Shown here: positions 133-21,436 of the stretch, one piece after another
Position numbering within the stretch: position 1 is the stretch's first letter
How the letters are laid out: each line of letters opens with the position of its first letter
Source of the DNA: Neocallimastix sp. 'constans'
Lineage: Eukaryota
NCBI GenBank assembly: GCA_050613775.1
Contig: JBODTK010000105.1
Location: 558,001 to 579,703, forward strand
DNA: 21,703 nucleotides
Direction of reading: 5' to 3'
Translations under genes and position numbers: made by a program
Notes under the pieces: generated by a model
What the model was told of the DNA's origin: nothing
Seen by the model: only the letters and a program-made list of their open reading frames with translations
Database searches by the model: none

Positions 133-1893
133 GTAGCACATAAAAATCCCGCATATCAATATGAATATCATGAAATAAAAATAACAAAAATAAGCATAAA
201 ACTTAAATAATAATAATAATAATATATATTTAATAGCAATGATAAAATTTCTTATAAAAAAAATACTATTATATAAAATTCTGGTTTGTCTCCTTTTGTA
301 GGGAGAAACTATTTTAAAGAGTATTCTTATTGATATTTATTAAATATTTAAAATTTTTTAGAGTAAAATAGTATAAAAAATAATTATCTTTTATTATAAT
401 ATTAAAGAATAAATTCACAAAAATTATAAACAATAAATTTTTGTTTTATATATTAATAATTAATAATTCTTTAACATAAATTTATTAAATCACGTTACTT
501 TTATAACATTTTTCATTTTATCATTTCATTATTAATTATTGAAATTTATTCATAATTAAAATTTTTATTTAAATTTTTATTTATATTTTTATTATGAAAA
601 GATTTAATTTATTACTTTTTTTTTAATATTTTAAATTGTTTTATTAAAAAAAAAATTAAAAGTTATTTAAATGTGTAATTATATTTCAACTTTCTTTTGG
701 TATATATTATATTTAATGAAATATATATATATATATATATATTTAGTTTAGAATTTTTAAAGAGATATTAATTTTTATATTTTACTATTATTCTATATTA
801 TAATTTTTTTATAGTTCTTTATAAAAATGGCTAAGTATTAATTAATACATCATATTAAATTTATATCCACAATTTGAAAACTATATTTATTATGATAACC
901 ACCATCATTCCTATTGTTATGAAAGTACATCAAAAGAATGTGAAATTTTAAATCAATTAAATAAAAATTGAACTAAGAAAAAAAATAAAATAAAAAGATA
1001 TTTATTATTAATTTAAATAATCTATATATATTATTATTGATTAAAAAAACAATTATGTATTATTTTTTATATATTTTTTTAATTTAATTATTTTAAACTC
1101 TATTCTAATATTAACAAATAATTAATATGATTTAAATTTATGGATATCTTTTAATTATTATTATTATTATTATTATTACACTAAAAATATTATTATTATT
1201 ATTATTATAATAATATTATTATACTTATTATTATTACACTTGTTAAATATTATTATAACTATTATTATTATTATTATTATTATTATCATTTATTATTATT
1301 ATTATAAGGATTAAGATAAAATTTTAAAAAGTTAATTATTTTTAATACATACAAATTTAGTAAAAATTCTAAAAATAAAAAAATTAATTTATTATCTAAA
1401 AGAGATTAAATATATATAGAAAAAAGAGAACTATAGATTCAACTTTTAATAAAATATATGTATAAACATAATTAAATATATATAAAAATAATTAAAAAAA
1501 ATGAAAAAGTAATAAGGAAGGGGTGAAGTAATACTAAAATACTTCTAATTTCTATAACTATTATAATAAAATAATATAGTTATATCTATTATAAATAATT
1601 GTTCAATTTAATAATTTATTATTCTTTTTTATACATCTACAGAGTTAATTTTAATTTTATGATTTTAACTTTCTTTTATATAATTATAATTTAAATCATA
1701 ATATCTGATATAAATATATTTCTATATATTTATATATTTATTAATCATGTATTAATTATAAATATAAATATCATTTGAATATTTTGTTTGATATAAAAAA
1801 TCAATAAACAAATAAATAAATAAAAACAAAAATAAAAAAAAAAACATAAATAAAAAAAGGGGAAAATATTTATATATAAATGTGTATACAAGA

Positions 1894-4532
1894 ATGCGAT
1901 TATTCACAACAATAGTAACTATTGAAAAACTCGGTGAAATAATTTCAAATGGTAATGTTAAAAAATTACGATTTTTATTGGAATATGCAAACAAACATAA
2001 TATTTCACTGGATTTAAATAAAAAAATTAGAAATGAAAGTTATCCTCTTTTTTTAGCAGTAGATAGTGATAATGTTGAAATAGTACAACTGTTATTTCGA
2101 TATGCAGATGATCAAAATATAATATTGAATGTGAATGAAAAAGACAATAAAGGTTATTATCCACTTTATTGGGCAATATGTAAAAATAACATTGATATAG
2201 TTCAACTTCTAATTGAATATGGAGATAATCATAATATTATTTTAACGGTAAATGATAAAGATTATGAAGATGGATGGTATCCACTCTATTTAGCAGCAGA
2301 TAATAACAATGTTATAATATTTAAATTATTGATAGAGTATGCTAATAAGTACAACATTATACTTGAACTAAATGAAAAAAATAAAGATGGATGGTATCCT
2401 CTTATATGGGCAACGCATTATAATAATAATATTGAAATGGTAAAATTATTGAAAGAATACGCAGATAGACATAACATAAAATTAAAATGGGATTGGCAAA
2501 TCAAAAATAATGAAATTATTAAAATATTAGAAAATAATACAGTGGTAATTTTTATTTTATTACACATATTAAATGGAAAAAAAAAAAAAGTATATATAAA
2601 TAAATTAACATGTTATTCTTATTTTATTGTATTATAACTATATATATTTAAAATTATTATCATTTTTTTTTTTGTTTGAAAATAAAATGTAATATATATA
2701 TATTTTCTGATAAAAGGAAAAAAATGGGCAAAAAATACCAAATAAGGAAGAAGAAGAAATGGGTAAATAATATACATAGAACTTTCAAAAGAAAATAATT
2801 AAAAAATAATGATAATTAATAAATTTTCATTTAGAAAATTATATAAAATTTTTATTATTAATATATATATATATTATATATATACAATATGAAATTAAAA
2901 TTAAAAATATAATGTATAAATGTACATATATATATATTATTTAAAATATTTTTTATTAGCTAAAATAATAGAATATATTGAAAATGATGATTTTAATAAT
3001 TTAAATTCATTAATAGAAAATAAGGAGAAACAACAATTATTATTGGAATTAAATAGAAAAAATAAAGATGGAAAATATCCATTCTACTCTGCTATACATA
3101 AAAATAATGAAAAGATTGTTAAATTATTGATTGATTATGCCGATAGAAACAATATTTCATTTGAAATTAACGAAAAAGATAAAAAAGGTACATATCCATT
3201 GATGTCAGCAGCATTCTGTAATAATATTGAAATTATGGGATTAATAAAAGATTATTCTGATCGACATAATATTATCTTAGAATTAAATGAAAAATATAAA
3301 AATGGAGAATATCCTCTTTTGTATGCTGTTGCTAATAATAATAGTCAAATGGTAGATATGATTATGGAGTACGCAGATAAGCATGGTATTTCGTTGGAAT
3401 TAAATGAGAAGACAAAGAATGGATTATATCCATTTTTATTAGCAACAATTAATGAGAATGATAAGATTATTAGTTCGTTAATAGAACATGCCAATAAACA
3501 TCAAATAATTCTGAAAGTGAATGAACGTGATGTTGACTGCGGAATATTTCCATTGCTAGAAGCTGTATCCAAAAATAATATTAAAATTGTTCAGTTATTA
3601 ATAGACTATACCAATAAACAAAATATTGCTTTAGATTTAAATGCAAAAAATAATGAAAATCGATATCCACTTTATTACGCTGTCTCTAATAACAATGTGG
3701 AGATAACAAAATTATTAATGGAATTCGCAGATCAGCATAACATTGTTATAGAATTTAATGAAAAAATTAAAGATGGAAGATTTCCATTTTATATAGCGGT
3801 CTATAAAAACTTTATTGAAATAGTGAAGCTCTTAATAGAATATGCTAATAAGCACGGAATTGATTTGGAAATAAACAAGAAATATGATGATATGTATCCA
3901 TTTGATTTTGTTGTTATAAATAATAATCTTGAGATAGCTAAATTAATAGTGAACTATGCAAATGAACATAATATTAAAGTAGAATGGGATATCGATATTA
4001 CTAATCCTGAGTTTAATAAATTACTGAATTGTACTTCAGAAAATGAAGAAAAGGTAATTAAATAAATAAAAATTTTATTAACTTTATCTTTAAAAAAAAT
4101 GGATAATATCTATATAAACAAATAAAATATTATAGTAAAAGAAATAAAATAATTTAAATTAAAATATTAAGTAAAAAGTAAAATAATTTTTACACTTTAA
4201 TAAAGTAATGATAGTAATATTAATAATAAAAATAGTAATAATAAGTAATAATAATATTAATTTTATATTAAATTATTAATAAAATTTATATTTATAACAA
4301 ATATATAAATGCTTTTTTATATTTTTATTAATTTTTTTTTTAAAAAAAAATAATTAAGAATTTAAATGAAGAAGATAAAGAAAATAATGCACTACCAAAT
4401 AATGCTGATGAATCTACAAAAGAAAAATTAATTAATAATTCTTCTGAGCAAGAATCAATGCATTCATCAACAAAGCATCATGTTTTACAATCATCTAATA
4501 ATTCAGAAATTTCAACTTCATTTCGTCCATAA
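1894..4532 (+). CDS. Ankyrin-repeat protein, spliced: join(1894..2544,2717..2762,2960..4053,4359..4532), 654 aa
   Basis: ORFs 1882-2637 and 2920-4065 encode repeats of the form G.YPL..A...NN.EIVKLLIEYA..HNI.L..NEK. Three GT-AG introns have compatible phases: GTAATT 2545/AAAG 2716 (phase 0), GTAAAT 2763/TTAG 2959 (phase 1, G+CT gives Ala), GTAATT 4054/TAAG 4358 (phase 0). The last exon is open to TAA at 4530-4532. The start ATG at 1894 is the least certain part. Confidence 0.85.
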
Positions 4533-5229: not shown

Positions 5230-6290
5230 ATCAAAGTGTTTTTAAGAAATTATCAATATAAGATAATTTAATTGTATCATCATTATTGGAATTTCTGAGT
5301 CCTTCATTGTTATTTTTAACAAATTTTTCATTAAAAATTAGAATTTTGATATTTAAATATATTATTTTCTATATTTATTTTATTTTGAAAATATATTTTT
5401 AATTATTATTATTATTAATTGGAAATTTTATATGTTCTTTGTAATTTTTATGTTCTCTCTCAAAAAGAAATTGAAAAAGAATAAAAAAAATATTTTAATT
5501 TAAATATTGGGTGTATTTTTATTGAAATGTGCATCAATTACTAACTGCGACAATTGATTTGGAATGGCTATATCATCTTTATTGGGTTCTTTATATTTAC
5601 TTTTATATGTATGATTGGGATTATTAATCATTATAGTAGTTGCACAGACGTTATCAATAGCACCCAACTATCTTAGCATTATTTATATCTAACTTTAAAC
5701 CTTTATATACATGAGATCTAAATTTTAGTGAAACTTCAGATAGTTCTTCAAATGTGATATTACATTTGGTAGTATTTAAATCTTTAACTACATCATATGA
5801 TATATGGTATGCTATCATTTGAATTTTTTATTGTACTTATGGAATCTTGGTTCCTGGAGGCTTATTTACTTTTTACTTTTTTATTTACGAATTTGGTTAT
5901 AGGTTTGGTTAAAGTAATATTATTTTCTTCATGATCAGGAATCTTCACATTCTTATTGTCAATATTCACAATTTCAATAGACGTTTCAAAAGTACTGGCT
6001 CTTTCTATATCTTGAATTGCTTTTTCCTTAGCTTTTTTCATAACCAATTAAGAGTTGAGCCATTATCAAGAGATCAAGGGATATATTTTATATGTCACCT
6101 GTTTAGAAATTGAATTTGTTTCCAGTTCTTCTTCATTTTGAAAAGCAGGTGAAGCAATAGGTGAATGATAATTTTTAAGGCTATTATGAATACTCTTTTC
6201 TTTGTTAGTCTCGTGATCTTTACTAACATTGGTGCTTTTTTTAATGAAAGTAGTAAACAGTAATTTTCATTTAGAAGCAATTCATTATCC
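5230..6290 (-). pseudogene. Decayed Ty3/gypsy gag-protease region
   Basis: Manual minus-strand translation gives SYDVVKDLNTTKCNITFEELSEVSLKFRSHVYKGLKL (about 5800-5690), resembling the pre-protease motif of fungal gypsy polyproteins. After a frameshift it reads KDDIAI...LVIDAHFN, a decayed protease active-site region. Many stops and frameshifts; boundaries approximate. Confidence 0.6.
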
Positions 6291-6291
6291 T

Positions 6292-6775
6292 TGATACGGA
6301 CTGGGGTTGAAACACTAAGATATTCAAATCAAAAAAATAATTATTAACACACAAAGATGAAAATAAATTCGGAAACAAAAAAATTAATTTTTAAATATTC
6401 TTTATTTAAATTTAAAACTAAAATTATTTGTTCCAAGTATTAAAAAGAAAGAAATTTATTCTTCTTTTTATACTTTTATTTAATACATTTTATTTATCTT
6501 TATTATATTTTTTATATAAAAAAAAACTATTCTAACTATTTTATTTTTAACTTTTTACTATTATTTTATATTATTTTTAATATTTTTATATTGCTAAAAA
6601 AAAAACATTTATTAAACTAAACTAATAAAATTAAATTTTGAGGTTGTATCACGAAGGGCGTTCCCTGTGGTAGTTTCTTCTTGATATTGTCTTCATAGAT
6701 AGAATTATACAGAATTGATGTTATCTGTATTTTAGATCATTTTTGTTATTGAAGAATTTCTGTATTTTAGTTATA
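6292..6775 (-). mobile_element. Partial LTR of family A (3' half)
   Basis: Starts TGATACGGACTGGGGTTGAAACACTAAG, aligning with 8822 onward and with the reverse complement of the end of 19354-21410. Similarity stops near 6775. No PBS and no clear TSD. Confidence 0.85.
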
Positions 6776-7063
6776 TCATTTCATAGAATTTTTATTATTA
6801 TCATTATTTTCTTTCATTAAATTTTTATTCTTTTCTTTATCACTATTTACATTATTTTCAATAATTTCATCATTATTATATATATATATATATTTTTTTT
6901 TATTTATTTATTTGTTATCGGTTATTATTAAAAGATTCACAATTACAATTACAATTATTATTATGTTTATATAATTACAACTTAAAAAAAACAAATAAAC
7001 TTAATTAAAAACAAGGTAAATTAACAAACCTAATACAACTTGAAAAACCACTATCTATTACAA

Positions 7064-7357
7064 TCTGCCAACCTCGCAGAGGGACCTTAGTATTTCGGTA
7101 TACTAAGTGAATTTGCCTGAGTCAAGTGGAGGAGTACTCAAACCGTGTTGAACGTATAATGAGTGATCTATAGGGTAATTTCTGCTTCCCAACAGTATTT
7201 ACCTCTATATCTAATCGGGGTTCGATTAGTTAGTAATCGGCCCCTCTCCAAACACTCGATTAAACCACTCGCAATTATAGAATTATCTATAACTGCTTAG
7301 TACGCAGTACTCTCAGTTTAAAGTTTTATTTGGAGCACGCGAAGACCAAATAAAACT
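7064..7357. other. GC-enriched multi-hairpin non-coding segment
   Basis: Six stems: 7064-7068/7076-7080, 7086-7093/7100-7107, 7169-7178/7199-7209, 7211-7217/7223-7229, 7271-7281/7286-7296, 7322-7333/7346-7357. Confidence 0.55.
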
Positions 7358-7377
7358 GATGTTAATTTTTATAACAC

Positions 7378-7408
<31 letters not shown>

Positions 7409-7552
7409 CACTAAAAACCAATGACAATAAAAAAATAAATTATGATGATGATGATAAAAGTGTGAAAATATATATTTTTTTTTTAAATTTAATTAATTTT
7501 AATGTAATTTAATTTAAATCTATTTAGTTTAATTTATAAAAATTTTTTTAAT

Positions 7553-7713
7553 GGTTCCAGTAGTTCTAGTAGTTCCAGTAGTTCCCATAACTTCCAAAAG
7601 TTCCAGTAGCTTCCAAGGTTCCTTCTTCTTCTTTTTCTTCTTTTTCTTCTTCTTTTTCTTCTTTTTCTTCTTCTTCTTCTTCTTCTTCTTCTTCTTCTTC
7701 TTCTTTTTCTTCT
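7553..7713. repeat. Degenerate 9-bp repeats (GTTCCAGTA) followed by a (CTT)n tract
   Basis: Directly visible; lies immediately downstream (minus strand) of the PBS at 7714-7731. Confidence 0.9.
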
Positions 7714-7731
7714 TCCCCGATATCTCCACCA
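7714..7731 (-). promoter_or_regulatory. Primer-binding site complementary to a tRNA-Ala 3' end (TGGTGGAGATATCGGGGA)
   Basis: Begins TGG, 4 nt after the LTR end at 7736. Its complement ...AUCUCCACCA fits the Ala acceptor stem (U70 of the G3:U70 pair). Confidence 0.8.
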
Positions 7732-7735
7732 ATTT

Positions 7736-8364
7736 TGGTAGACTAATTAAATCAAGCAGAGGGGGATGGGAGTTACCCTGCTTTGATTTAATAAATTTAA
7801 TAAAAAAAATTTTTTTTAATAAAATTATTTATTATTTATTAATAATTAATATTTTTCTTGAAGTTACATATTTATATTTTAAAAATTTCTTGTGATATTA
7901 ATATTTTTTTTATAAATTTAACTATAATTAATTGTTTATAATTTAAATAATTTTATAGAATTATTGAATTAATTTTATATCAATAATTCATTTTTGTTTT
8001 AATTTTTATAAATATAATAATATAATATTTAAATATAATTTAATTAGAAATAATTATAAAATAAATATATAGAAAATAGTTTTTACTATTTTCTTTGATA
8101 TTTTTAAGTTAGTTTAAATTAATTTATATCAAAATAAATTAATTTTTATAATTAGGTTTAGGTTATCAAGAATATAGGAAAGTACAATTTAATAAATAAT
8201 TATTAATAATATTTTATACAAAATAAAGGTTATTAATTCATTCTTTACCAAATTTAAACTTGTAATTAGGTTTAGGTTATCAAGAATATAGGAAAGTACA
8301 ATTTAGTAAAGAATTATTAATAATATTTTATACAAAATAAAGGTTATTTATTCATTCTTTACCA
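7736..8364 (-). mobile_element. 5' LTR of family F (629 bp)
   Basis: TGGTA...TACCA termini, followed on the minus strand by the Ala PBS. Hairpin 7748-7790 near its 3' end. Internal duplication 8149-8250/8263-8364. Confidence 0.75.
8149..8364. repeat. Tandem duplication of about 102 bp, period 114
   Basis: TAATTAGGTTTAGGTTATCAAG...CATTCTTTACCA occurs at 8149-8250 and 8263-8364 with a few substitutions. Confidence 0.95.
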
Positions 8365-8368
8365 CATT

Positions 8369-8817
8369 TGGTATGTGTTATTGTACCTGGAGCTTTTTTT
8401 TTGACACTACTCTAGTTAAGATAAATTATTCTAAATTGAATAAACACAAAAATTAATAACTTTTATTTATTTATTATTAAAATATTTTTTTTATTATTTT
8501 TTTTTATTAATATTTTTTTTTATTATATTATTTTATTACAAATTATTTTAGTTATTACATTTTATTATCATCTAGCTAACTATATATTTTTATTTCTTAT
8601 TATCTACACTACATTTTTTTATCTTTTTCCTCTCCTATTCTTTTCTTTCTAATCTCTCTCCCCCTTTTATAATTATTTTCTTATTTATATCTTTTTTATA
8701 TTTTTTTTCTCATTTAAGATTATAGTTGTTTATTTCTTAAAATTTTAAATATTTAATCTTTGAACTTTATTCTTGAATTTATTGTTTATTTCATAGTTAT
8801 TAGGGTGTCCCGTACCA
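8369..8817 (-). mobile_element. Solo LTR of family G (449 bp) with CATT TSD
   Basis: Termini TGGTATG/CGTACCA. CATT on both sides (8365-8368, 8818-8821). Minus orientation is inferred from TATAAAAGGGG at 8671-8661. Confidence 0.75.
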
Positions 8818-8821
8818 CATT

Positions 8822-9814
8822 TGATACTGGCTGGGGTTGAAACACTAAGATATTCAAAACAAAAAAAATAGATATTACACAAAAATGAATTTGGAAACAA
8901 AAACAATTAATTTTTAAAATATTCTTTATTTAAAATTAAAATTAAAATTAAAATTATTTGTTCCCCGGTATTAAAAAGAAAGAAATTTATTCTTCTTTTT
9001 ATACTTTTATTTTAATACATTTTATTTATCATTAATTTATTCTTTATAAAAAAAAAACTATTATAACTATTTTATTTTAATTTTTAACTATTATTTTAAA
9101 TTGTTTTTTTTTTTTGAAAAAAATAACATTTATTAAATAAAAATTAATTTAGAGATTGTATCACGAAGGGCGGTAGCTTCTTCTTGATATTGTTTTCAGA
9201 GAGAGAATTATACAGAATTGATATTTTCTGTATTTTAGATCATTTTTATTATTGAAATTCTTCTGTATTTTAGTTCATTTTTATTTTAATAAAGATTTAA
9301 TTTATTTTTGATTTTTGTTTTATTTTTAGTTTATTTTAAAGGTTTAGAAAATATTATACTGAAACTTATAATTCTGTATTATATATCAAATATTTATTGA
9401 ATTAGGTTTTTATTATACTTAATATAAAAATAAGAATTAGTAATGATTTAAATTATATATAATTTTTAATAAGAGTATTTAGTAATAATTTTTGTTATAT
9501 TTAATATTAATAAAAGAAATTAGTAAGAATATTTAATAATAATTTTTATTATATTTGATATTAATAAAAAATATTTAATAATAATATTTATTAAATTTAA
9601 TATTAATAAAAGAAATTTATAATAATATTTAATAATAATTTTTATTATATTTGATATTAATAAAAGAAATTAGTAAGAATATTTAATAATAAATATTTAT
9701 TATATTTAATATTAATAAAAGAAATTTATAAGAATATTTAATAATAATTTTTATTAAATTATTATTAAGAGTATTTAATAGGAAATACAAGGTATTTAGT
9801 GACACCCCGTATCA
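8822..9814 (-). mobile_element. Solo LTR of family A (993 bp)
   Basis: Termini TGATAC/GTATCA. Colinear in reverse complement with 19354-21410 except for a shorter repeat array. Flanks CATT and TATT (3/4 match). Confidence 0.9.
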
Positions 9815-9818
9815 TATT

Positions 9819-10725
9819 TGTTGAGGTTCGGGACAGATTAATAATAAATATAGAAGTAAACACTAAAATAAAAAAAAAATTAAAAATTAAAATATATCTT
9901 TTTAAAATATTTTATTTATTTATTTAATAAAAATTATTCAATTAAAACTAAAGATAATATAATTTTTTTTGAATAAGATTATATCTTTTAATATTATTTA
10001 TTTAAAATACAATTTTTTCATCTATTTATATTTTTTTTTATCGTTAGAAATGGTCAAGCCATTTCTTTAGAATATTTTAGAGTTATATGTTTGAATTGTA
10101 TTTAAATTATAAATTCATAATCTATTCTATTATAATAAATAATTATTATATATAATTCTAAACTATTTATTATTAATTGTAGTGATAATATATTTTAAAA
10201 ATAATTTTATTACTTTTACAGAACTATTAGTAATAGAGTATTATTTAATTTCATACTATTTTTAAATAAAAGTATTTTAGATTATTATCTATTATTAATA
10301 TTATTATAAATAGGGTGTATTTTGGAAGGAAGTATTACTAATTTTAATGACAAGGATCATGGATTTAAATAAAATATTTTTAAATCATTATTAATTATAT
10401 TAATTTTATTAATAATAAATAATCTGTATTAGTAATATTTGTAAAATAAAATTTTCTTTAATAATAAAATATTAATAGAATAAATCATATTAATAAAACT
10501 AGATATTGATAATAATATTGATATTAATAATATAGTATTATTTTTAATAATAAAGTATTGATATCGATAAAGAATTTATATTAATAATAATAAATTTAAT
10601 ATTAGTAATAATTTGGCAGAACATAAGAAAGTTCTCCAAGTAAGGAAATAAATAATTAAATTTTAGTGGTTAAGTTATTTTTATGAAAAATAATAAAATT
10701 AAATTTATTTGTTCATTCCTTAACA
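9819..10725 (-). mobile_element. 3' LTR of gypsy element B (907 bp)
   Basis: Minus-strand termini TGTTAAGG...CCTCAACA (7/8 inverted match). Immediately preceded by a PPT-like tract and the end of pol. Confidence 0.8.
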
Positions 10726-10748: not shown

Positions 10749-13612
10749 CTATACAGAAGCTGAGTTAAACTTGATTATGTTCTTCAAGTGAACATTGCGG
10801 TTCATTTATATACCCGACTTAGGATCGGCCAATGTTGCTGTGTTGAATTGTTTCTTAATTACTTGGAGTGGTCCAACAAAATATGGTTCTAACTTGGTTC
10901 GAGTAAAATTCCTTACTAAGACTAAATCACCAGGTTTTATTTTTTTGGCCTGATTCATACTATTCTTTTGTTCTCTACGAGTAGCCCAGTATTTATTTGC
11001 ATTTTTGATAATGGCCGCAGCTTCCATAGTCCATAAGTAGTGATTGACAAATTTTTCCAATAGGATTTCATCCGAAGATTTGTTTACACTTTTAGTTGGT
11101 CTAGCAGATATTTCAAAGGGTTGTTGGTCTTCTCGTCCATAAACAAGTTCAAAGCTAGAGTGATTAGTAACCGAATTTTTGGTTGTACGAAGAGCCCATA
11201 AAGCGGATGGTAAGACTTCGTCCCATTCTTTTTGTTTATTTTCTAAAAGTCTAAGTAGTTTTCCAATTTCTATATTTCGGTTTTCTGTAAGACCGTTCGT
11301 TTCTGGATGATAAGTGGTACTGTAAAAGAAAACACAAAAATAGATTACAATAACAAAATACAATAAATTTTATTTTATTAAAAAATTTTTTATTAAAATA
11401 TATTTTATTAATATTTAATAGTTATTTGTTAAAAATAACAATTACATCGAGAAAAAATGTGAAAAGTATCTTCTATTTATACTTTTCCTAAATACATTGA
11501 TAATACATTATTTTATTTAAATTACATATATTTTAATATAAAACTATCCTAATGAATTTTATTAAATAATAAATTTATAAACTATAACTAAATTTAGAAA
11601 AATATAATTATTAATTAAACTAAATACTAAATAATTAAAATTAAGTACATTTATTATCTATTTATTATTTTAATATTATAAGTAAAGTCTTTATTTATTT
11701 TCGATTTAAAAACAATGTTAAAGGAGTCATGATTAAATTTTGAAACTTAATTTTCACAAAATAAATTATTAATTTATTTTGTTTTAAACTTTAATTAATT
11801 CATTTAAATTATTTTACAACAATAATTTTCTCAGAATTAAAATTTATAAAAATTATTACATTAAAAATTTATCTTGTGGCTTAAAGAATATAATTCAAAA
11901 ATTTAGTTCATATGATTTATTTACTTTGTTTATTATTTTATAAATCAAAGAATAATTTACATTTTTGAATTACACAAGAAAAATTTTTAATTTAAAATGT
12001 GATTGGGATAATCACATCTTTACAGGTACTGAACCTCACATACACATCATAAAGATCTAGGAACATTTTTGTCATATCCGAATTGAATTGAACACCATTA
12101 TCAGTTGTAATTATTTGAGGCACACCATGAGGAGAGATTATATTAATTAAAAATCTTATTACCTCTTTTGAAGTTACATTTTCAGTTGGCTCGGCCTCTA
12201 CCCATTTAGTATAATAGTCCACGATTACCAAAATATATTTATTATTGTTTGATGTTTTCTCTAGAGGTCCAATTATATCTAAACCTAAATGTGTGAAAGG
12301 TCCTTCAACTTCTGTAGGAATATCTTCTGTTGGTTCTGGGTATGCTTTGGGTCTATTTAATTGACATTGTTCGCATTTTGAAATAATTCTTTTAATATCG
12401 TTTACCATGTTGTTCCAATAGTAACTTTTTCGTAATCGTTGGTAAGTTTTATTATATCCTTCATGTCCTATGCCATGAGCTTCAAGAATAAGTTTGACCT
12501 TTTTATTAGTATTAGTGATTAATTTCCTATAAGTATTTCCATCTACAAAGTATTCAATTCCATCAATTGTTGTAAATTTTTCTTCCATAAATTCTTTTAC
12601 AACTATAGATAATAAAGATTCATCAACTTTTGAAGAGAGTTTTGTTGCCAATATTTTTTTATCATTTATACTTTTCATTCGAGAAAGAACATCAGCTACA
12701 ACATTCTTTTTGCCAGGTTCATATCGAATTTCTACACCTAAAAGATTTATAGCTAAACACCATCTGGTTTGTCGAGCACTTGTTGGTTCTTTCTTGTTGA
12801 ATAATCCTACTAAGGGTTTATGGTCAGTATAGATTATTGTTTTAATGGGATTTCCCATAATATAAGGTCTAAATTTTGTTAAACAATAAAATAGAGCAGT
12901 TCCTTCTAGATCTGTAATTCCGTAATTTCTTTCATGTTTAGTTAATGTTCTACTTTTATAGTGTACAGGATGCTCTTTTTTGTTTCATCATCTTTTTGTA
13001 ATAGGACACCACCAATGCCATCATACGATGCATCTGTTCGAATAATAATTCTTTCTCGAAACATGGAAATTTTAAAATTGGTGCATTCATTAATTTTTCT
13101 TTAAGTATATTAAAGCTATCATTTTGCTCTTTATTCCATTGGAATTCAACATATTTTCTTAACAATTTGCAGAGAGGAGCAGTGATTCGAGCAAATTTAT
13201 CGATGAAATATCGATAATAACCTATCGCCCCTAGGAAAGACCGTAATTCATGGAAGTTTGAAGGAGGTTTCCAATTTTTAATTGATTCAATCTTGCTATC
13301 AAGAGGGCTCAGACCTTTTGCAGATACTTTGTGACCGAGGACTTCAACTTCTGTTTGCATAAACGAACATTTTTCAATATTGATCTTAAGTTTGTGTTCT
13401 TTGAAAACAGCGAGTACTTTAGCAATATGTTCGAGGTCTTCTTCTAAAGATTTTGAGTATATAAGGATATCGTCAATGAAGTTGAAAACGAAATCACCAA
13501 TGAAAAGGAAGAGAATTTTGTTCATCTCACGTTGAAAAGTTGCTGGAGCGTTAGTAAGTCCGAAAGGCATGACTTTGAATTGATAATTTCCGAATTTTGT
13601 GGTAAAACTGGT
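10749..13612 (-). pseudogene. pol: Ty3/gypsy pol (RT - RNase H - integrase), disrupted and 5'-truncated
   Basis: RT motifs MPFGLTNAPATFQ and FIDD; RNase H TDAS/DLEG/YTDHKPL; integrase HHCC (H-GIGH...CEQC), DDE (LDIIGP, TTDNG, LTEN) and a GPY/F-like tail. The RT-RH-IN order is gypsy. Lesions: frameshift near 13047, solo LTR 11321-12024, premature TAA at 10806-10808; native stop at 10749-10751. Confidence 0.95.
11321..12024. mobile_element. Solo LTR (704 bp) inserted in the integrase, 5-bp TSD GGTAC
   Basis: TGTAAA...TTTACA termini; GGTAC at 11316-11320 and 12025-12029. Removing it restores VRFSTTYHPETNG. Confidence 0.92.
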
Positions 13613-13917
13613 AAAACTTCAGAATCAAGGAATAATTTTAAGTCTGAATACCATTTGTGAAAGTTTTCATTTGAAATTCTAAAGTTTTGAATGTGAAATT
13701 TATTAATTGTGTTGGTTTGAATATTTGGAGGTTCTACTTCGACAAGAGTATCGTTCATTGTTGTACTAAATGTATTTGTAGTCTTTGTTGTCTTTGGAGG
13801 TTCTACTTCGACAAGAGTATCGTTCATTGTTGTACTAAATGTATTTGTAGTTTTTGTTGTCTTTGAAGAAATTTTTGAAGAAATCCCCGTAGCTGTTGAA
13901 TTATCTGATTTAGTCAT
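13613..13917 (-). pseudogene. gag: Probable Ty1/copia gag N-terminus, truncated
   Basis: ATG at 13917, about 120 nt after an LTR. ENFHKWYSDLKLFL resembles the copia gag N(Y/F)xxW motif. It is fused to gypsy RT near 13610. Confidence 0.55.
13724..13865. repeat. 69-bp in-frame tandem duplication (KTTKTTNTFSTTMNDTLVEVEPP x2)
   Basis: Copies start at 13724 and 13793 and differ by one substitution. Confidence 0.95.
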
Positions 13918-14327: not shown

Positions 14328-14499
14328 ATAATAATTTTATAGAATAAATTATTTTTACTATTAATCTATTCTAATATTTCTAAACTATTCTAAATTATAG
14401 CAATAATCTATAATTTTATTAAGCTATTTTATTTTATTATTTATTTAATTATAATGTAAAATAATTAATACTTATCTTTATTAATTTTTATTAAATAAT

Positions 14500-15126
14500 T
14501 GTAACGGAGGTGCTTCTATTGTAAAGGCGGGATGAGATATAGAAACACAGAAAGGAGAAAACTCAATAGGTTTACACTATCTGTATAAATAATTCGTTTT
14601 ATTAGAAATATTTTTTATTAATTATAAAATTTAAAATAATTATTAATATTAATCAACAAGGTAATATTTCGAATTACTTATACGTTAATTATTATTAATA
14701 AAAGCACGAAGAAAAATATTTTCATTCGTGAAGTTCGCACTATTTATACTTTTAACGGAAAAACAGTTTTAACATGTAAAAATAATTTTAAAGAAATATT
14801 TAGAAATATGTTTGTAATAATTAATAATGTAAAGTTTCTAGAATATAGATTTTAATTGATGAAAATGAATCTTATCAAAAAAGAATAAAATAATTTATAT
14901 AATAAGAATTTCTAAATTCATTTCGGTTGAATTACGAACCGAAAGAATCTTTAACTTTCTATAATTTTATACAGAAAGAATATTCAAGAAGATATTATTA
15001 ATAATTAATAAAATAATTAATAAAATAATTATTTATGCAAAATGGGTTGAGGTGTGAGTCGAACCCATGAAGTATTGGTCATGGTCGATGTAACTAACCA
15101 TTGAACCAAAGTTCTAATTTTACTAA
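14500..15126. mobile_element. LTR-like segment interrupted by the right-hand insertion stack
   Basis: Abrupt compositional shift at TGTAACGG (14500); hairpins at about 14705-14730 and 14921-14944. No partner end was found in the window. Confidence 0.35.
15043..15115 (-). promoter_or_regulatory. Degenerate tRNA-like type-2 Pol III promoter (A box + B box)
   Basis: A-box-like TGGTTCAATGG (15108-15098) and B box GGTTCGACTC (15065-15056). T8-to-G53 spacing is 44 nt versus about 45 in tRNAs. Acceptor, D and anticodon stems do not pair. Confidence 0.65.
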
Positions 15127-15130
15127 CTGA

Positions 15131-15784
15131 TGATACGATACCACTATAAAAATAAGATTTAGGTAAGAAATTTAGGTTAGAAATATTGTATAAATATTAT
15201 TGGTTATAATAATTAAAATAATTTATATATAGTTAATTCAAATAATTATTTTTAAAAGCATGGTTAATTCTTTTGTCATAATTAAAAATAGATAAATTAT
15301 ATTATTAATGATTCTATTATTATGATAATAAATTAATTCATCATTATTATTAATAAGTTTTATTTTATATTTTAAATATTATTTTGAGAATTATATAGTT
15401 TTAGGAATTATATTATAAATATTGATAATTATATTTTATTCAGGAAATATATTTTAAATATTAATAGTTAAATATATTTAATAATGAAATTGTATTTTTA
15501 AATAAAGTTATTAGGAAATTAATAGTTAAAGAGATATGTTTAATAAAAATATAATATTAATTAATTATTTTAACAATTATATAAAATTAAGAGAATGTAA
15601 TAATAAATTATTATGTATGTAAAAATAAAATTATAAAAATAAATAAAGAACAAAATATTATTATAAAACATTATTATTATAAATTATTTTCTTATATTTA
15701 TTAGAATATATTATTGTGTCATAATTCCCTAGAGAAACGACCAAATAAATAAATAACTAGATATGGAATATTTTAAATGTTCTG
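15131..15784 (+). repeat. 5' LTR of E (lacks the terminal TATCA)
   Basis: Matches 18691-19344 at offset 3560. Confidence 0.95.
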
Positions 15785-16396
15785 ATGCATGTCCAGTAAA
15801 AATAATAGAAAATAATAGAAAAATTATTTAGAAAAATTATTAATATAAATATTTATTAAAAATTAATTTTATATAATGAATCTTAAAATATATTATTAAT
15901 ATATTATTAAAGATAATTTATTATTATTAATTATTAAAATATTAAATTAAATAATAATATTAAAAATATTAAAAGAATTGTTGATAATATAGTAAAATTA
16001 GTTATATTAATTATAACGGAGATTGAATGTTTAATTAAATTGATGTTAATATTAAAATAATTTTTAAATAATGTTAAACAATATGAATTAATAGTTATAA
16101 GTAAAAAGTTATGAATATTTATATTTATTAATTAATTTTAGTGTTTCGATAAATAAAATTTATAAAATTAGTAAAAAATATAATTATGAAAATAATTTAT
16201 AAATAAATATTTTCTTTTTTTTTAAGGAATAATAATAAAACATGTATTTTTTTTATGATAAAATATAATAAATAAAATAATAAAAGATAAATAACTAAAA
16301 AGTAAATATAATTATTGTAATATAATATTCTTGGAGTAATTCCCTTTTGCACAAACGCCCAACTAACATATACGGTATTTAATAAAATATCGTATC
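15783..16396 (+). mobile_element. Extra diverged LTR-like unit (E') between the 5' LTR and the PBS
   Basis: Starts TGATGC, ends CGTATC just before TAAAA and the PBS. Shares the subterminal motif TAATTCCCT...AAACG.CCAA.TAA with LTR E (16337 vs 15722). Confidence 0.55.
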
Positions 16397-16401
16397 TAAA
16401 A

Positions 16402-16419
16402 TGGTGGAGAATCCGGGCG
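16402..16419 (+). promoter_or_regulatory. tRNA-Ala primer-binding site (TGGTGGAGAATCCGGGCG)
   Basis: Complement ...GAUUCUCCACCA fits an Ala acceptor stem; identical 18-mer at 21419. Confidence 0.88.
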
Positions 16420-16460
16420 TTTCTCTAGCATGATAATATGAAAATAATAAAAATTTGAAA

Positions 16461-16463
<3 letters not shown>

Positions 16464-16525
<62 letters not shown>
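16464..16525. repeat. (AAT)n microsatellite in the leader of E
   Basis: Directly visible. Confidence 0.95.
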
Positions 16526-16526
<1 letters not shown>

Positions 16527-16724
16527 AAAAAAAAAATATCGTGTAATAAAATAATAGTTTATTTTAACACGTAAAGATAATATTAATAGTTTTTAATGAC
16601 ACGTAATAAAGTAATAGTTTAAAATAGTAAATAATAAAATAATAGTTATTTAAAATGTTATAATATATATTATTTAAAATAACGCGTAATAGAAATAAAT
16701 ATAAACAAAAAAAAAGAAAAAAAT

Positions 16725-16769
<45 letters not shown>

Positions 16770-16775
16770 ACCAAA

Positions 16776-18431
16776 ATGAATGTTCAAGGCTTAATAAAAG
16801 AACTACCATTATTAGTCAATTATGGAAGGGATATTGATGGATGGATTAAGGACTTTGAGGAAGTTATGGAATTATGGGAGATTTACACATTGAGGCAACA
16901 ATACTTTTGGATAATTAAATGTGTAAATCAAGACATAAGTATAGAAATTAAAATATTAAAAGAAAAGTATAAAAGAAATGAATATCCAACATTAAAAGAA
17001 ATACAATATGCCATTGAAAAATATTTAAATATTACTCAAAGTGAAAAATGCTGGACTTTAAAGACCATAAAAGTTCCAAATGATACAAAAATTTCAATTT
17101 TTAATGTAACTTATAGAAGACTATTAAAGAATTTGGAGTGCGACTTTAGAAAATTAGTGACAATTGAAGATTATTTAAATTCAATAAAAGTTAGACGTTT
17201 CCCATATCAACAAGTAATTATAAAAGGATGCAAAACTATAGAAGATGCTATGAAAACTGCTTCTCTCGCTGAAAGAATAGAAAATGAATTAATAGAATCT
17301 AATAAGGAAGAAAGAGAATACTTTAATAACCATAAAATAACTTATAATAAGAGAAACAATAGGACTGACCCTTATAACACATCTTTTAGAGAATATGGAT
17401 TAATAAATGAAAATATTAATAAAAATTTTAGGAAATTTAATTTTAATTATTACAATAATTATAATAATAAATTAAAAACTAATAATTATTATAATAAAAT
17501 AAATAATTTTACGCCTAGACAAAACAAAATGAATTATTATAAAAGAAATTATAATATTGAACAAAATAAAAATTTTAATAATTTTGATTCGGGTTATACT
17601 AATGTTAAATGTGGCAATTCAAATTTTAATTGTAAAGAAAATTATTTAAAATCTATGAATAATTCTAATTGTAATTCTTGCATGAATGTTAATTCAATAA
17701 ATAATTATTATATTAATAAAGAAAATTTGAATTCATATTATTATTATGGTAATATTAATAGTTCTTCAAAAGGTATTTATAAAGAAATAATAAATAGTAA
17801 TTATGATCATAATATTAATAGTAAAGATACTTGCACTATTGAAGAAAATTATAATTTAAATTCCGTGGATGAAAATGTTAATGTTAAGGGCGAATCAGGA
17901 AATAAACACGTAAATAATGATAATGATAGAATTCAAACTAAAATCACAACTTATAATGATAATATGGATAAACAAATTATTGAAGAAAATATAGAAGGTA
18001 ATATGGTAATTAATAAATTGAGTGATACTATTCTCGAAGGTAACGTATATAATCCATCACATAAACTAATTCCAGTAGAAAAGAAAAACGAAAACATATT
18101 ATTATGTAAAGAGGAAAGTAAATTATTAGAAAGTAAACCTATTGATAAATTGAAAATAAATAAAATTAAGATGGAAGGAAATAATTTAAATATTTATAAT
18201 GAAATGATAAATAAAATTAAAATAAATTCTGATAATAAAATAATAATAAAAAAAATACCTACTGTAGAAAATTCCAACCAAAATAATGGTAATAGCAAAA
18301 ATAATTCAAAAAGAAAATTTAAAATTAAATTTAATTATAAAAATACAATTATTAAAAAGTATAATAATAATAGGAAAGATACAAAGTGTATTATCAGGAA
18401 TTACAAATATAAAAGAAAAAGAAAAACATAG
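16776..18431 (+). CDS. gag: Gag-like protein (551 aa) with a long Asn/Lys-rich tail
   Basis: Intact ORF between PBS and PPT. The N-terminal ~170 aa has a capsid-like pattern (DIDGWIKDFEEVMELWEI; ISIFNVTYRRLL); the remainder is low complexity. The call rests on position and motif resemblance. Confidence 0.75.
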   Translation: MNVQGLIKELPLLVNYGRDIDGWIKDFEEVMELWEIYTLRQQYFWIIKCVNQDISIEIKILKEKYKRNEYPTLKEIQYAIEKYLNITQSEKCWTLKTIKVPNDTKISIFNVTYRRLLKNLECDFRKLVTIEDYLNSIKVRRFPYQQVIIKGCKTIEDAMKTASLAERIENELIESNKEEREYFNNHKITYNKRNNRTDPYNTSFREYGLINENINKNFRKFNFNYYNNYNNKLKTNNYYNKINNFTPRQNKMNYYKRNYNIEQNKNFNNFDSGYTNVKCGNSNFNCKENYLKSMNNSNCNSCMNVNSINNYYINKENLNSYYYYGNINSSSKGIYKEIINSNYDHNINSKDTCTIEENYNLNSVDENVNVKGESGNKHVNNDNDRIQTKITTYNDNMDKQIIEENIEGNMVINKLSDTILEGNVYNPSHKLIPVEKKNENILLCKEESKLLESKPIDKLKINKIKMEGNNLNIYNEMINKIKINSDNKIIIKKIPTVENSNQNNGNSKNNSKRKFKIKFNYKNTIIKKYNNNRKDTKCIIRNYKYKRKRKT

Positions 18432-18675
18432 TTTGAATATAATTCAATTAAATTTTCAAAATTCAAAATTCAAAAATTCAAAATTTAAATTATTAAATTT
18501 CAAATTTCAAATTTCAAATTTCAAATTTCTATAAAAAAAAAAAAAAAAAATTTATACATAATATTTTTATGTTTTTACTTTTTTAACAAAATATATATAA
18601 AAATTTAATTATTAAATAATTAAAAAAAAAAATTTTTTTTTTTTTCGCCTGACTTCAAGGGACGAAGTCTTATTT

Positions 18676-18690
18676 AAAGTGGGGGAATCT
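18676..18690 (+). promoter_or_regulatory. Polypurine tract (AAAGTGGGGGAATCT)
   Basis: Abuts the 3' LTR start; preceded by a GACTTC/GAAGTC stem typical in position of gypsy 3' ends. Confidence 0.85.
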
Positions 18691-19349
18691 TGATACGATA
18701 CCACTATAAAAATAAGATTTAGGTAAGAAATTTAGGTTAGAAATATTGTATAAATATTATTGGTTATAATAATTAAAATAATTTATATATAGTTAATTCA
18801 AATAATTATTTTTAAAAGCATGGTTAATTCTTTTGTCATAATTAAAAATAGATAAATTATATTATTAATGATTCTATTATTATGATAATAAATTAATTCA
18901 TCATTATTATTAATAAGTTTTATTTTATATTTTAAATATTATTTTGAGAATTATATAGTTTTAGGAATTATATTATAAATATTGATAATTATATTTTATT
19001 CAGGAAATATATTTTAAATATTAATAGTTAAATATATTTAATAATGAAATTGTATTTTTAAATAAAGTTATTAGGAAATTAATAGTTAAAGAGATATGTT
19101 TAATAAAAATATAATATTAATTAATTATTTTAACAATTATATAAAATTAAGAGAATGTAATAATAAATTATTATGTATGTAAAAATAAAATTATAAAAAT
19201 AAATAAAGAACAAAATATTATTATAAAACATTATTATTATAAATTATTTTCTTATATTTATTAGAATATATTATTGTGTCATAATTCCCTAGAGAAACGA
19301 CCAAATAAATAAATAACTAGATATGGAATATTTTAAATGTTCTGTATCA
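18691..19349 (+). repeat. 3' LTR of E (659 bp)
   Basis: TGATAC...GTATCA; follows the PPT and is followed by the TSD. Confidence 0.95.
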
Positions 19350-19353
19350 CTGA

Positions 19354-21410
19354 TGATACGGGGTGTCACTAAATACCTTGTATTTCCTATTAAATACTCT
19401 TAATAATAATAAAATAAAATTATTATTAAATATTCTTATTAAAATCTTTTATTAATATCAAATATAATAAAAATTATTATTAAATATTCTTATAAATTTC
19501 TTTTATTAATATTAAATATAATAAAAATTATTATTAAATATTCTTATAAATTTCTTTTATTAATATTAAATATAATAAAAATTATTAAATATTCTAATAA
19601 AAATCTTTTATTAATATCAAATATAATAAAAATTATTATTAAATATTCTTATTAAAATCTTTTATAATAAAAATTATTATTAAATATTCTTATATAATTC
19701 TTTTATTAATATTAAATATAATAAAAATTATTATTAAATATTCTTATTAAAATCTTTTATAATAAAAATTATTATTAAATATTCTTATAAAATTCTTTTA
19801 TTAATATTAAATATAATAAAAATTATTATTAAATATTCTTATTAAAATCTTTTATTAATATCAAATATAATAAAAATTATTAAATATTCTAATAAAAATC
19901 TTTTATTAATATTAAATATAATAAAAATTATTATTAAATATTCTTATTAAAATCTTTTATAATAAAAATTATTATTAAATATTCTTATAAAATTCTTTTA
20001 TTAATATTAAATATAATAAAAATTATTATTAAATATTCTTATTAAAATCTTTTATTAATATCAAATATAATAAAAATTATTAAATATTCTAATAAAAATC
20101 TATTATTAATATTAAATATAATAAAAATTATTATTAAATATTCTTATTAAAATCTTTTATAATAAAAATTATTATTAAATATTCTTATAAAATTCTTTTA
20201 TTAATATTAAATATAATAAAAATTATTATTAAATATTCTTATTAAAATCTTTTATTAATATCAAATATAATAAAAATTATTAAATATTCTAATAAAAATC
20301 TTTTATTAATATTAAATATAATAAAAATTATTATTAAATATTCTTATTAAAATCTTTTATAATAAAAATTATTATTAAATATTCTTATAAAATTCTTTTA
20401 TTAATATCAAATCTAATAAAAATTATTATTAAATATTCTTATTAAAATCTTTTATTAATATCAAATATGATAAAAATTATTATTAAATATTCTTATAAAT
20501 TTCTTTTATTAATATCAAATATAATAAAAATTATTATTAAATATTCTTATTAAAATCTTTTATAATAAAAATTATTATTAAATATTCTTATAAAATTCTT
20601 TTATTAATATTAAATATAATAAAAATTATTATTAAATATTCTTATTAAAATCTTTTATTAATATCAAATCTAATAAAAATAATTATTAAATATTTTATTA
20701 ATATTAAATATAATAAAAATTATTACTAAATATTCTTATTAAAAATTATATAATATTTAAATCATTACTAATTCTTATTTTTATATTAAGAATAATAAAA
20801 ACCTATTTCAATAAATATTTGATGTAAAATACAGAATTATAAGTTTCTGTATAATATTTTCTAAAACCTTTGAAATAAACTAAAAATAAAACAAAATTAA
20901 AAATAAATTAAATCTTTATTAAAATAAAAATGAACTAAAATACAGAAGAATTCCAATAATAAAAATGATCTAAAATACAGAAAATATCAATTCTGTATAA
21001 TTTTCTCTCTGAATAACAATATCATGAAGAAGCTACCGCCTGGAATGCCCTTCGTGATACAAGCTCCAAATTAATTTTTTTATATTTTTATTTAATAAAT
21101 GTTATTTTTTTTTTTTTAAAAAATAATTTAAAATAATAGTTAAAAATTAAAATAAAATAGTTATAATAGTTTTTTTTTTTATAAAGAATATATTAATAAT
21201 AAATAAAATGTATTAAAATAAAAGTATAAAAAGAAGAATAAATTTCTTTCTTTTTAATACTTGGAACAAATAATTTTAATTTTAAATTTAAATAAAGAAT
21301 ATTTTAAAATTTAATTTTTTTTCTTGTTTCCAAATTTATTTTTATAGTTATGTGTTAATATTTATTTTTTTGTTTTGAATATCTTAGTGTTTCAACCCCA
21401 GCCCGTATCA
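19354..21410 (+). mobile_element. 5' LTR of a family-A element (2057 bp); the element continues past the window end
   Basis: Perfect 9-bp inverted termini TGATACGGG/CCCGTATCA; homologous to 8822-9814; PBS follows after 8 nt. Confidence 0.92.
19405..20750. repeat. AT-rich minisatellite (about 54-bp unit with shorter variants) with a 200-bp higher-order repeat
   Basis: Unit ~TAAAAATTATTATTAAATATTCTTATWAAWTCTTTTATTAATATYAAATATAA. The same blocks recur at 19741, 19941, 20141 and 20341. Confidence 0.93.
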
Positions 21411-21418
21411 TAAAAATT

Positions 21419-21436
21419 TGGTGGAGAATCCGGGCG
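21419..21436 (+). promoter_or_regulatory. tRNA-Ala primer-binding site
   Basis: TGGTGGAGAATCCGGGCG, identical to 16402-16419. Confidence 0.9.

Follow-up and report, generated by a model that had tools for sequence, protein, structure and literature searches.

The question raised by this locus, part of a 21,703-nucleotide (nt) stretch from the anaerobic gut fungus Neocallimastix sp. 'constans' (assembly GCA_050613775.1, contig JBODTK010000105.1, positions 558,001 to 579,703, forward strand; 17.7% G+C; hereafter the window), is how two different long terminal repeat (LTR) retrotransposons came to be inserted at one and the same base beside a tRNA-like RNA polymerase III (Pol III) promoter. The two, elements E and A, are Ty3/gypsy-type LTR elements of Neocallimastix and were inserted successively into the same four bases. 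We favour, with moderate confidence, the explanation that E and A, and perhaps related families, reached this site because their integrase was steered to Pol III start sites, and that a further LTR element, H, which carries the promoter, spreads such landing sites. The features of the locus are as follows:

14500 to 15130, plus strand: LTR H, starting TGTAACGG and interrupted 13 nt short of its 3' end; placed by contig depth and loose ends.
15039 to 15115, minus strand: degenerate tRNA-like Pol III module in H and antisense to H, found by box scan, with no ARAGORN or Rfam call.
15127 to 15130, plus strand: promoter-proximal CTGA target site duplication, 11 nt from the +1 of the module and present once in empty H copies.
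15131 to 16397, plus strand: 5' LTR of E, long class, 1267 nt (TGATACGAT...ATCGTATC), with a 10-nt inverted end and a primer-binding site (PBS) after it.
16402 to 16419, plus strand: PBS of E, TGGTGGAGAATCCGGGCG, common to A.
16776 to 18431, plus strand: Gag-only open reading frame (ORF) of E, 551 amino acids from the first ATG, with a Ty3/gypsy-type capsid, no zinc knuckle and no pol.
18676 to 18690, plus strand: polypurine tract of E.
18691 to 19349, plus strand: 3' LTR of E, short class, 659 nt, its first 654 nt equal to the 5' LTR and followed by a terminal TATCA; 608 nt shorter than the 5' LTR.
19350 to 19353, plus strand: second CTGA, common to E and A.
19354 to 21410, plus strand: 5' LTR of A, 2057 nt, in the same orientation as E, with an internal 41/54-nt tandem expansion; the element leaves the window.
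21419 to 21436, plus strand: PBS of A, identical to that of E.

The order CTGA-E-CTGA-A described in the initial annotation was confirmed. The tetranucleotide, which accounts for 0.12% of all 4-mers in the window, occurs at 15127-15130 and 19350-19353, and TGATACG opens both E (15131) and A (19354). The proposal that E begins 16 nt from a tRNA-like +1 was also borne out, with the +1 at 15115 and 15 nt lying between it and the start of E. CTGA was found only once in empty copies of H and is therefore a genuine 4-bp target duplication. Both elements were inserted 13 nt inside the 3' end of H, and the 5' LTR of each faces the module, so that both read away from it (PBSs at 16402 and 21419). On the promoter strand the duplicated bases are TCAG, and a T precedes them in empty H copies; the resulting TTCAG resembles the yeast start motif ttCAan found under Ty3 duplications.

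The module has an A box at 15108-15098 (TGGTTCAATGG) and a B box at 15065-15055 (GGTTCGACTCA), 44 nt apart on the minus strand, with a +1 at 15115 by tRNA numbering, a CCA-like end at 15045-15043 and a T4 terminator at 15042-15039. It is one of two A/B modules in the window and the one with both boxes at consensus; the second, looser module lies at 11097/11147, within the integrase ORF of another element, B. As a control, any A/B module was found in 9 of 300 block shuffles of the window. ARAGORN gave 0 hits on the module, Rfam gave no tRNA hit at E<=5 (its single match was a chance snoRNA, E 2.2), and folding produced no cloverleaf (z -1.8 to -2.2). Bases 1 to 7 (AGAACTT) form no acceptor stem with the 3' strand, and the anticodon loop lacks one base; at 15087, nearly all other H copies have an A, which regains one anticodon-stem pair. 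A host tRNA gene was excluded on the basis of the ARAGORN and Rfam results, the unpaired acceptor, the short anticodon loop and the inclusion of the module in H. The head of a free short interspersed element (SINE) with its body at 14500-15042 was likewise excluded, as both ends are of LTR type and PBS-like sequence comes next. The earlier claim of a tRNA-like Pol III promoter thus stood as regards the boxes and the +1 near 15115, but the module is no tRNA gene and sits within the abundant LTR H, which had been overlooked. Boxes at consensus together with decayed acceptor and anticodon stems form the pattern of a kept promoter, as in the Helenus elements considered below.

Evidence on H came from public sequencing runs mapped on 14450-16450 (5 of 24 runs, namely X1, X2, X4, X7 and X24; X1 and X2 are one sample, which may be related to the source of the window). 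Contig depth was high over 14517-15119 in all three DNA runs. At the module it was ~3970 in X4 and ~7170 in X7, compared with 25 and 38-53 in long single-place contigs, a ratio of ~135-190 that is a rough guide only, since depth is not copy number; by this rough estimate the H family has ~150 copies. In the loose-end evidence near H (24 of 59 rows), the empty H end reads ...CTGA-AGATTTCGTTACA, after which the sequences diverge (X7 row 15123; X1 rows 15121, 15134 and 15141), and row 15134 of X1 comprised 8 contigs with an agreement of 0.68. When empty, H measures ~644 nt and has inverted ends; no polypurine tract is present at its left in the window, where it may be a solo or a 5' LTR. In one contig (X2 row 15141) the H end runs into TGG plus 17 nt that read as complementary to the 3' terminus of a tRNA, T-loop included. 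This PBS-like sequence, from that one contig, indicates that the sense strand of H is the plus strand, and hence that the module is antisense in the 3' (U5) part of H, its +1 lying 28 nt from the 3' end. A different end was seen in one divergent contig (X4 row 15122), followed by TGGTAAC, which may be a PBS or else open an LTR of F/G-like type. The strand of H read by the module contains 13 stretches of at least four T, and a T4 stands directly behind the module; since the module is backwards in H and would be stopped by this T4 after ~75 nt, it cannot drive the copying of H itself.

The geometry of the locus fits Pol III start-site targeting, since the 15-nt spacing equals the ~15-bp insertion optimum of Ty3 and DGLT-A, the latter lying 13-18 bp upstream of tRNA genes in 18 of 20 copies (PMC6101501, in the part covered). 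For a random insertion within H, the chance of falling in this 6-nt range of distances is ~1/100. The presence of two different families at one base calls for targeting, and the use of a different 4-mer in each stack (CTGA here and CATT in the first stack, a difference that had been correctly described) argues against a fixed target sequence. We propose that TFIIIC would bind both internal boxes of the H module and that TFIIIB would be loaded over the 3' end of H, whereupon an integrase provided in trans by an autonomous partner would cut at the predicted start site (about -13). As the boxes are internal, each insertion would leave the site working, so that the next element would land at an equal distance; newer insertions would push older ones outward, producing stacks that share one 4-mer. 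The effect of H would be to spread some 150 additional landing sites.

The origin of the module may be sought in the priming of reverse transcription. On the sense strand of H it opens with TGG after an A-run, resembling the PBSs of E, A and F, and in two X7 contigs the LTR-end-like ATTTCGT stands right before this A-run (row 15039), close to the present end of H. These features suggest, speculatively, that an old LTR end and the whole primer tRNA were copied in reverse and that a new end was added behind them; a SINE insertion, as proposed for Helenus, is the alternative. A broader scenario, which we offer tentatively and regard as possible but doubtful, is that H took up a tRNA in reverse orientation within its U5, probably through copying of the primer beyond its binding site, and kept of it only the Pol III boxes. 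Copies of H would then be mobile pads for a Pol III-aiming gypsy clade without the aiming module of Ty3, and one transposon would decide where others insert, drawing insertions away from host tRNA genes as a decoy and seeding multi-family stacks.

Several observations weigh against the targeting explanation, the first being that its evidence comes from a single site: no other 5' flank of E, and no second element clearly inserted at this point of H, turned up in the 24 of 59 loose-end rows. With genome and target numbers that were assumed and are illustrative, 0.05-0.3 such placements are expected by chance per 10,000 LTR ends, so that a single founder event is suggestive only and not decisive. 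Binding of TFIIIC and TFIIIB and transcription of the module are putative. Integrases of the B family, the one integrase family available for comparison, are without the C-terminal chromodomain-like part that positions Ty3, and profile searches found no link between the pol of B and the Gag of E. The remaining points concern the first stack, which consists of the following:

7714 to 10725, minus strand: first stack as a whole, comprising the B 3' LTR, an A solo LTR, a G solo LTR and the F 5' LTR.
9819 to 10725, minus strand: 3' LTR of B, then TATT (minus-strand AATA).
8822 to 9814, minus strand: solo LTR of A, then CATT (minus-strand AATG).
8369 to 8817, minus strand: solo LTR of G, then CATT (minus-strand AATG).
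7736 to 8364, minus strand: 5' LTR of F, with a PBS at 7714-7731 related to the PBS of E and A.

A scan at the matching place on the 5' side of this stack found no A/B module, and the stack fits only if B is its newest member and the loss of its 5' end removed the promoter. In both stacks, moreover, the insertions are found at a foreign LTR's 3' end, which is that of H in one case (13 nt inside) and that of B in the other (4 nt beyond). The 5' end of B is lost, the start of its LTR resembles that of F, and the TATT beside it is one base off the shared CATT; judged by sequence, B is probably a member of the first stack whose 5' end was lost with any promoter that it had. The first stack neither supports nor refutes the Pol III targeting model. 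Of the claim that these families target a fixed distance from Pol III promoters, what stands is the 15-nt spacing, the presence of two families at one 4-bp site and the differing 4-mers; set against it are the single site, a promoter that belongs to H and the lack of support from the first stack.

The position of both stacks at an LTR end gives rise to the strongest rival explanation, namely that these families recognise other LTRs at their 3' (U5) ends, or insert next to the ends of elements like themselves, guided by sequence or by a bound protein, while the tRNA-like module lies in the U5 of H as a bystander. The first 11 nt of E do resemble the last 13 nt of H, and landing beside existing LTR ends would equally yield shared 4-mers. 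We nevertheless consider this explanation unlikely: the two offsets are unequal, one being inside and the other beyond the LTR end, the ends of H and B are unlike in sequence, TATT is best read as an altered CATT with B as a stack member whose LTR starts like that of F, and the exact Ty3-like spacing of 15 nt would be left to chance. From ~6290 on, the window is a nest of LTR elements with at least six LTR families, which lends some weight to a second rival, that a random founder inserted in H within a repeat-rich region and a second copy followed through a general tandem tendency at a reused target, with no Pol III steering. Many LTR ends genome-wide provide many chances for such an event, and the site was chosen after the fact. 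We judge this improbable, however, given the ~1/100 position in H and given that reuse of the same base by different families in two stacks would still need a targeting device. One raw RNA run was mapped as well and gave 86 reads, 95% of which continued unlike the window, and 0 over 15053-15186, a result that is uninformative on a 75-nt RNA. Very improbable, finally, is a third rival, in which the module is defunct, an over-long PBS left in the U5 of H by the copying of a primer tRNA, with no Pol III factor binding to it and the insertion site set by local DNA shape. The antisense position of the module, the PBS-like TGG after the A-run, the ATTTCGT of the two X7 contigs and, weakly, the absence of RNA reads accord with this, but the boxes are at consensus in a ~150-copy family despite the decayed stems, and an origin by primer copying is compatible with promoter function.

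E has the TG...CA terminal repeats, PBS, polypurine tract and 4-bp duplication of an LTR element, although its 5' LTR end is one base off CA, and the PBS shared with A is tentatively labelled tRNA-Ala-like. Hypothetical proteins of Neocallimastix lanati match its ORF at 98-99% identity, and the cluster of 36 members to which it belongs also takes in proteins of ~470 amino acids from N. californiae and N. sp. 'constans'; E is therefore a multi-copy Neocallimastix family. Pfam gave no hit on the ORF of E itself; its Gag homologues bear Ty3_capsid, zf-CCHC and aspartic protease domains, and the best PDB match of the family profile was Ty3 Gag (E 1.5e-8). Judged through these homologues, the Gag of E is of Ty3/gypsy type. 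No pol, with its order of protease, reverse transcriptase, RNase H and integrase, was found in the ORFs of the element, and E is thus non-autonomous and needs pol in trans. A long Gag-Pol fusion related to E was found in 0 of 486 candidates, which is a weak test, and the E-Gag profile matched nothing below E 0.05 among 83 B-type Pol proteins, which gives no sign that B is the helper of E.

The description of the LTRs of E as identical failed, as only 654 nt are alike in a 5' LTR of 1267 nt and a 3' LTR of 659 nt. An assembly error in the short 3' LTR was excluded, because the same joint from 15783 to 16392 is also present in X4 and X7, at depths of 384 and 530, or ~10-15 times that of a long single-place contig. 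With 5' and 3' LTRs of different length classes and a short class that is multi-copy, E would be a hybrid of long-LTR and short-LTR copies, flanked nonetheless by an intact duplication; two templates may have been joined by strand transfer, or two E copies stacked here may have recombined. Dating E as the youngest element by its LTRs was dropped in view of the two length classes and of the second LTR of A, which lies beyond the window. A further LTR variant of E returns from 15783 to 15139, forming a tandem of the first part of the LTR, and 15783 is thus a rearrangement hot spot.

The two A-family LTRs, of 2057 nt (19354-21410) and 993 nt (8822-9814), differ by expansion of an AT-rich 41/54-nt unit and are 85-86% identical outside it. 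A third A-like LTR at 6292-6772 on the minus strand is a truncated 3' portion; no PBS follows it, and its adjoining 4-mer differs. Element F (7060-8364) has a 629-nt 5' LTR with a 114-nt tandem duplication at its start; its interior is short and non-coding and contains a (TTC)n run as well as a block of higher GC content at 7060-7360, and no 3' LTR was seen. Element B retains the following:

10806 to 13618, minus strand: pol remnants of B (reverse transcriptase, RNase H and integrase) in several frames.

Two long AT-rich interruptions, either inserts or gaps, break up this pol, one at 11370-11990 in the integrase and the other where the reverse transcriptase is cut at ~13618, and B also has a 69-nt tandem duplication at 13724-13868. 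Intact relatives of the B pol, at 82% identity, have the order protease, reverse transcriptase, RNase H, integrase, with Ty3 as the best PDB match. The B-family integrase stops ~5 residues past an SH3-type domain, whereas that of Ty3 goes on for ~100 residues, and many intact B-family Pol ORFs without a C-terminal chromodomain were found in metagenomes.

Collection scans for the module pattern gave 0 matches in viral contigs and 0 in genome contigs. The merged E/A LTR-start pattern was absent from viral contigs; its single match among metagenome contigs lay in bacterial DNA that holds no tRNA and is put down to chance. Protein scans for element loci gave 0 in viral contigs and, in genome contigs, three short contigs (L002, L003 and L004) with distant gypsy pol pieces, 30-46% identical to a B relative, and a tRNA in 0 of the 3; these contigs are filed in prokaryotic metagenome-assembled genomes and are probably eukaryotic contamination. 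Elsewhere in the window, two ORFs with 117-120-nt ankyrin-like repeats at 1816-4065 are probably exons of one host gene, a label given by sequence pattern, and a GC-richer stretch at 5500-6250, left of the first stack, has a broken minus-strand coding look.

If the favoured explanation is true, Pol III start-site targeting by LTR elements would extend to the anaerobic gut fungi, far from the yeasts and amoebae in which it has been described, probably having arisen there independently once more, with duplications of 4 bp and perhaps lacking the aiming domain of Ty3. A target that travels in a retrotransposon would explain the seeding of multi-family stacks across a large repeat-rich genome. Few genetic tools exist for gut fungi, in which a precise, site-reusing integrase would be of practical interest.

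The known systems were compared with this locus as far as the covered parts of the sources go (PMC4600332, PMC5911963, PMC5391098, PMC6101501, PMC5006619, PMC6673722, PMC10886601 and bioRxiv 2021.07.27.453949). These sources establish Pol III targeting for gypsy elements of yeasts and of Dictyostelium. No report of Pol III-targeted gypsy elements or tRNA-bearing LTRs in gut fungi was found, nor any of an antisense or captured tRNA inside an LTR, in a search outside of which lay most subscription journals and Repbase; the supplementary tables for Helenus could hold long or antisense families. Ty3 of Saccharomyces cerevisiae makes 5-bp duplications, over the yeast start motif ttCAan, in contrast to the 4 bp at E and A. 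Its integrase has a chromodomain-like C-terminal part that contacts TFIIIB, whereas B-family integrases end after the SH3-type domain, and neither E nor A is tied to the integrase of B. The locus differs from Ty3 further in that E is Gag-only, the target is borne by another LTR element, and different families are stacked at one base. Insertion of Ty3 at the tRNA relic ZOD1 is a precedent for a target that is not a tRNA gene. The 13-18 bp between DGLT-A of Dictyostelium discoideum and tRNA genes is like the 15 nt at E, and targeting by DGLT-A has been proposed to occur through binding of the RNase H and the N-terminal part of the integrase to the TFIIIC subunit Tfc4, with no C-terminal module needed (PMC6101501). 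DGLT-A, however, has a single gag-pol ORF and inserts in either orientation, while the stack members here all face one way and E is without pol.

Tj1 of Schizosaccharomyces japonicus, Tca8/beta of Candida albicans and Ylt1, Tyl3 and Tyl6 of Yarrowia are likewise fungal gypsy elements found just upstream of Pol III genes. All are from Ascomycota and have host genes as targets, whereas the target of E and A is in H; Tj1 also self-primes, in contrast to the tRNA-type PBS of E and A. The non-LTR element TRE5-A of Dictyostelium uses bare A/B-box loci, a second precedent for targets other than tRNA genes, and forms tandems at reused tRNA genes, but it has a LINE-type mechanism and inserts ~47 bp upstream rather than at 15 nt. 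The closest parallel to H itself is Helenus/TRIMp3 (Kojima 2024, PMC10886601), which has tRNA-derived sequence in its LTR, with the A and B boxes kept and the tRNA structure lost, and which occurs in hundreds of copies and as solo LTRs. Helenus is a miniature non-coding element of 311-1263 bp with two short LTRs of at most 323 bp, whereas the ~644-nt LTR of H is twice as long as the longest of these and only one LTR of H was seen. The Helenus promoter was proposed to transcribe the element, while the module of H appears to be antisense, on the evidence of one contig, and is followed by a T4 stop. In fungi, Helenus is described from rusts and agarics only, and the covered parts of that paper do not mention its use as a landing site by other elements. 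Taken against these systems, the locus probably adds a host lineage to a targeting mechanism already known, and its novelty is that the Pol III module is carried by a different LTR element, an abundant one.

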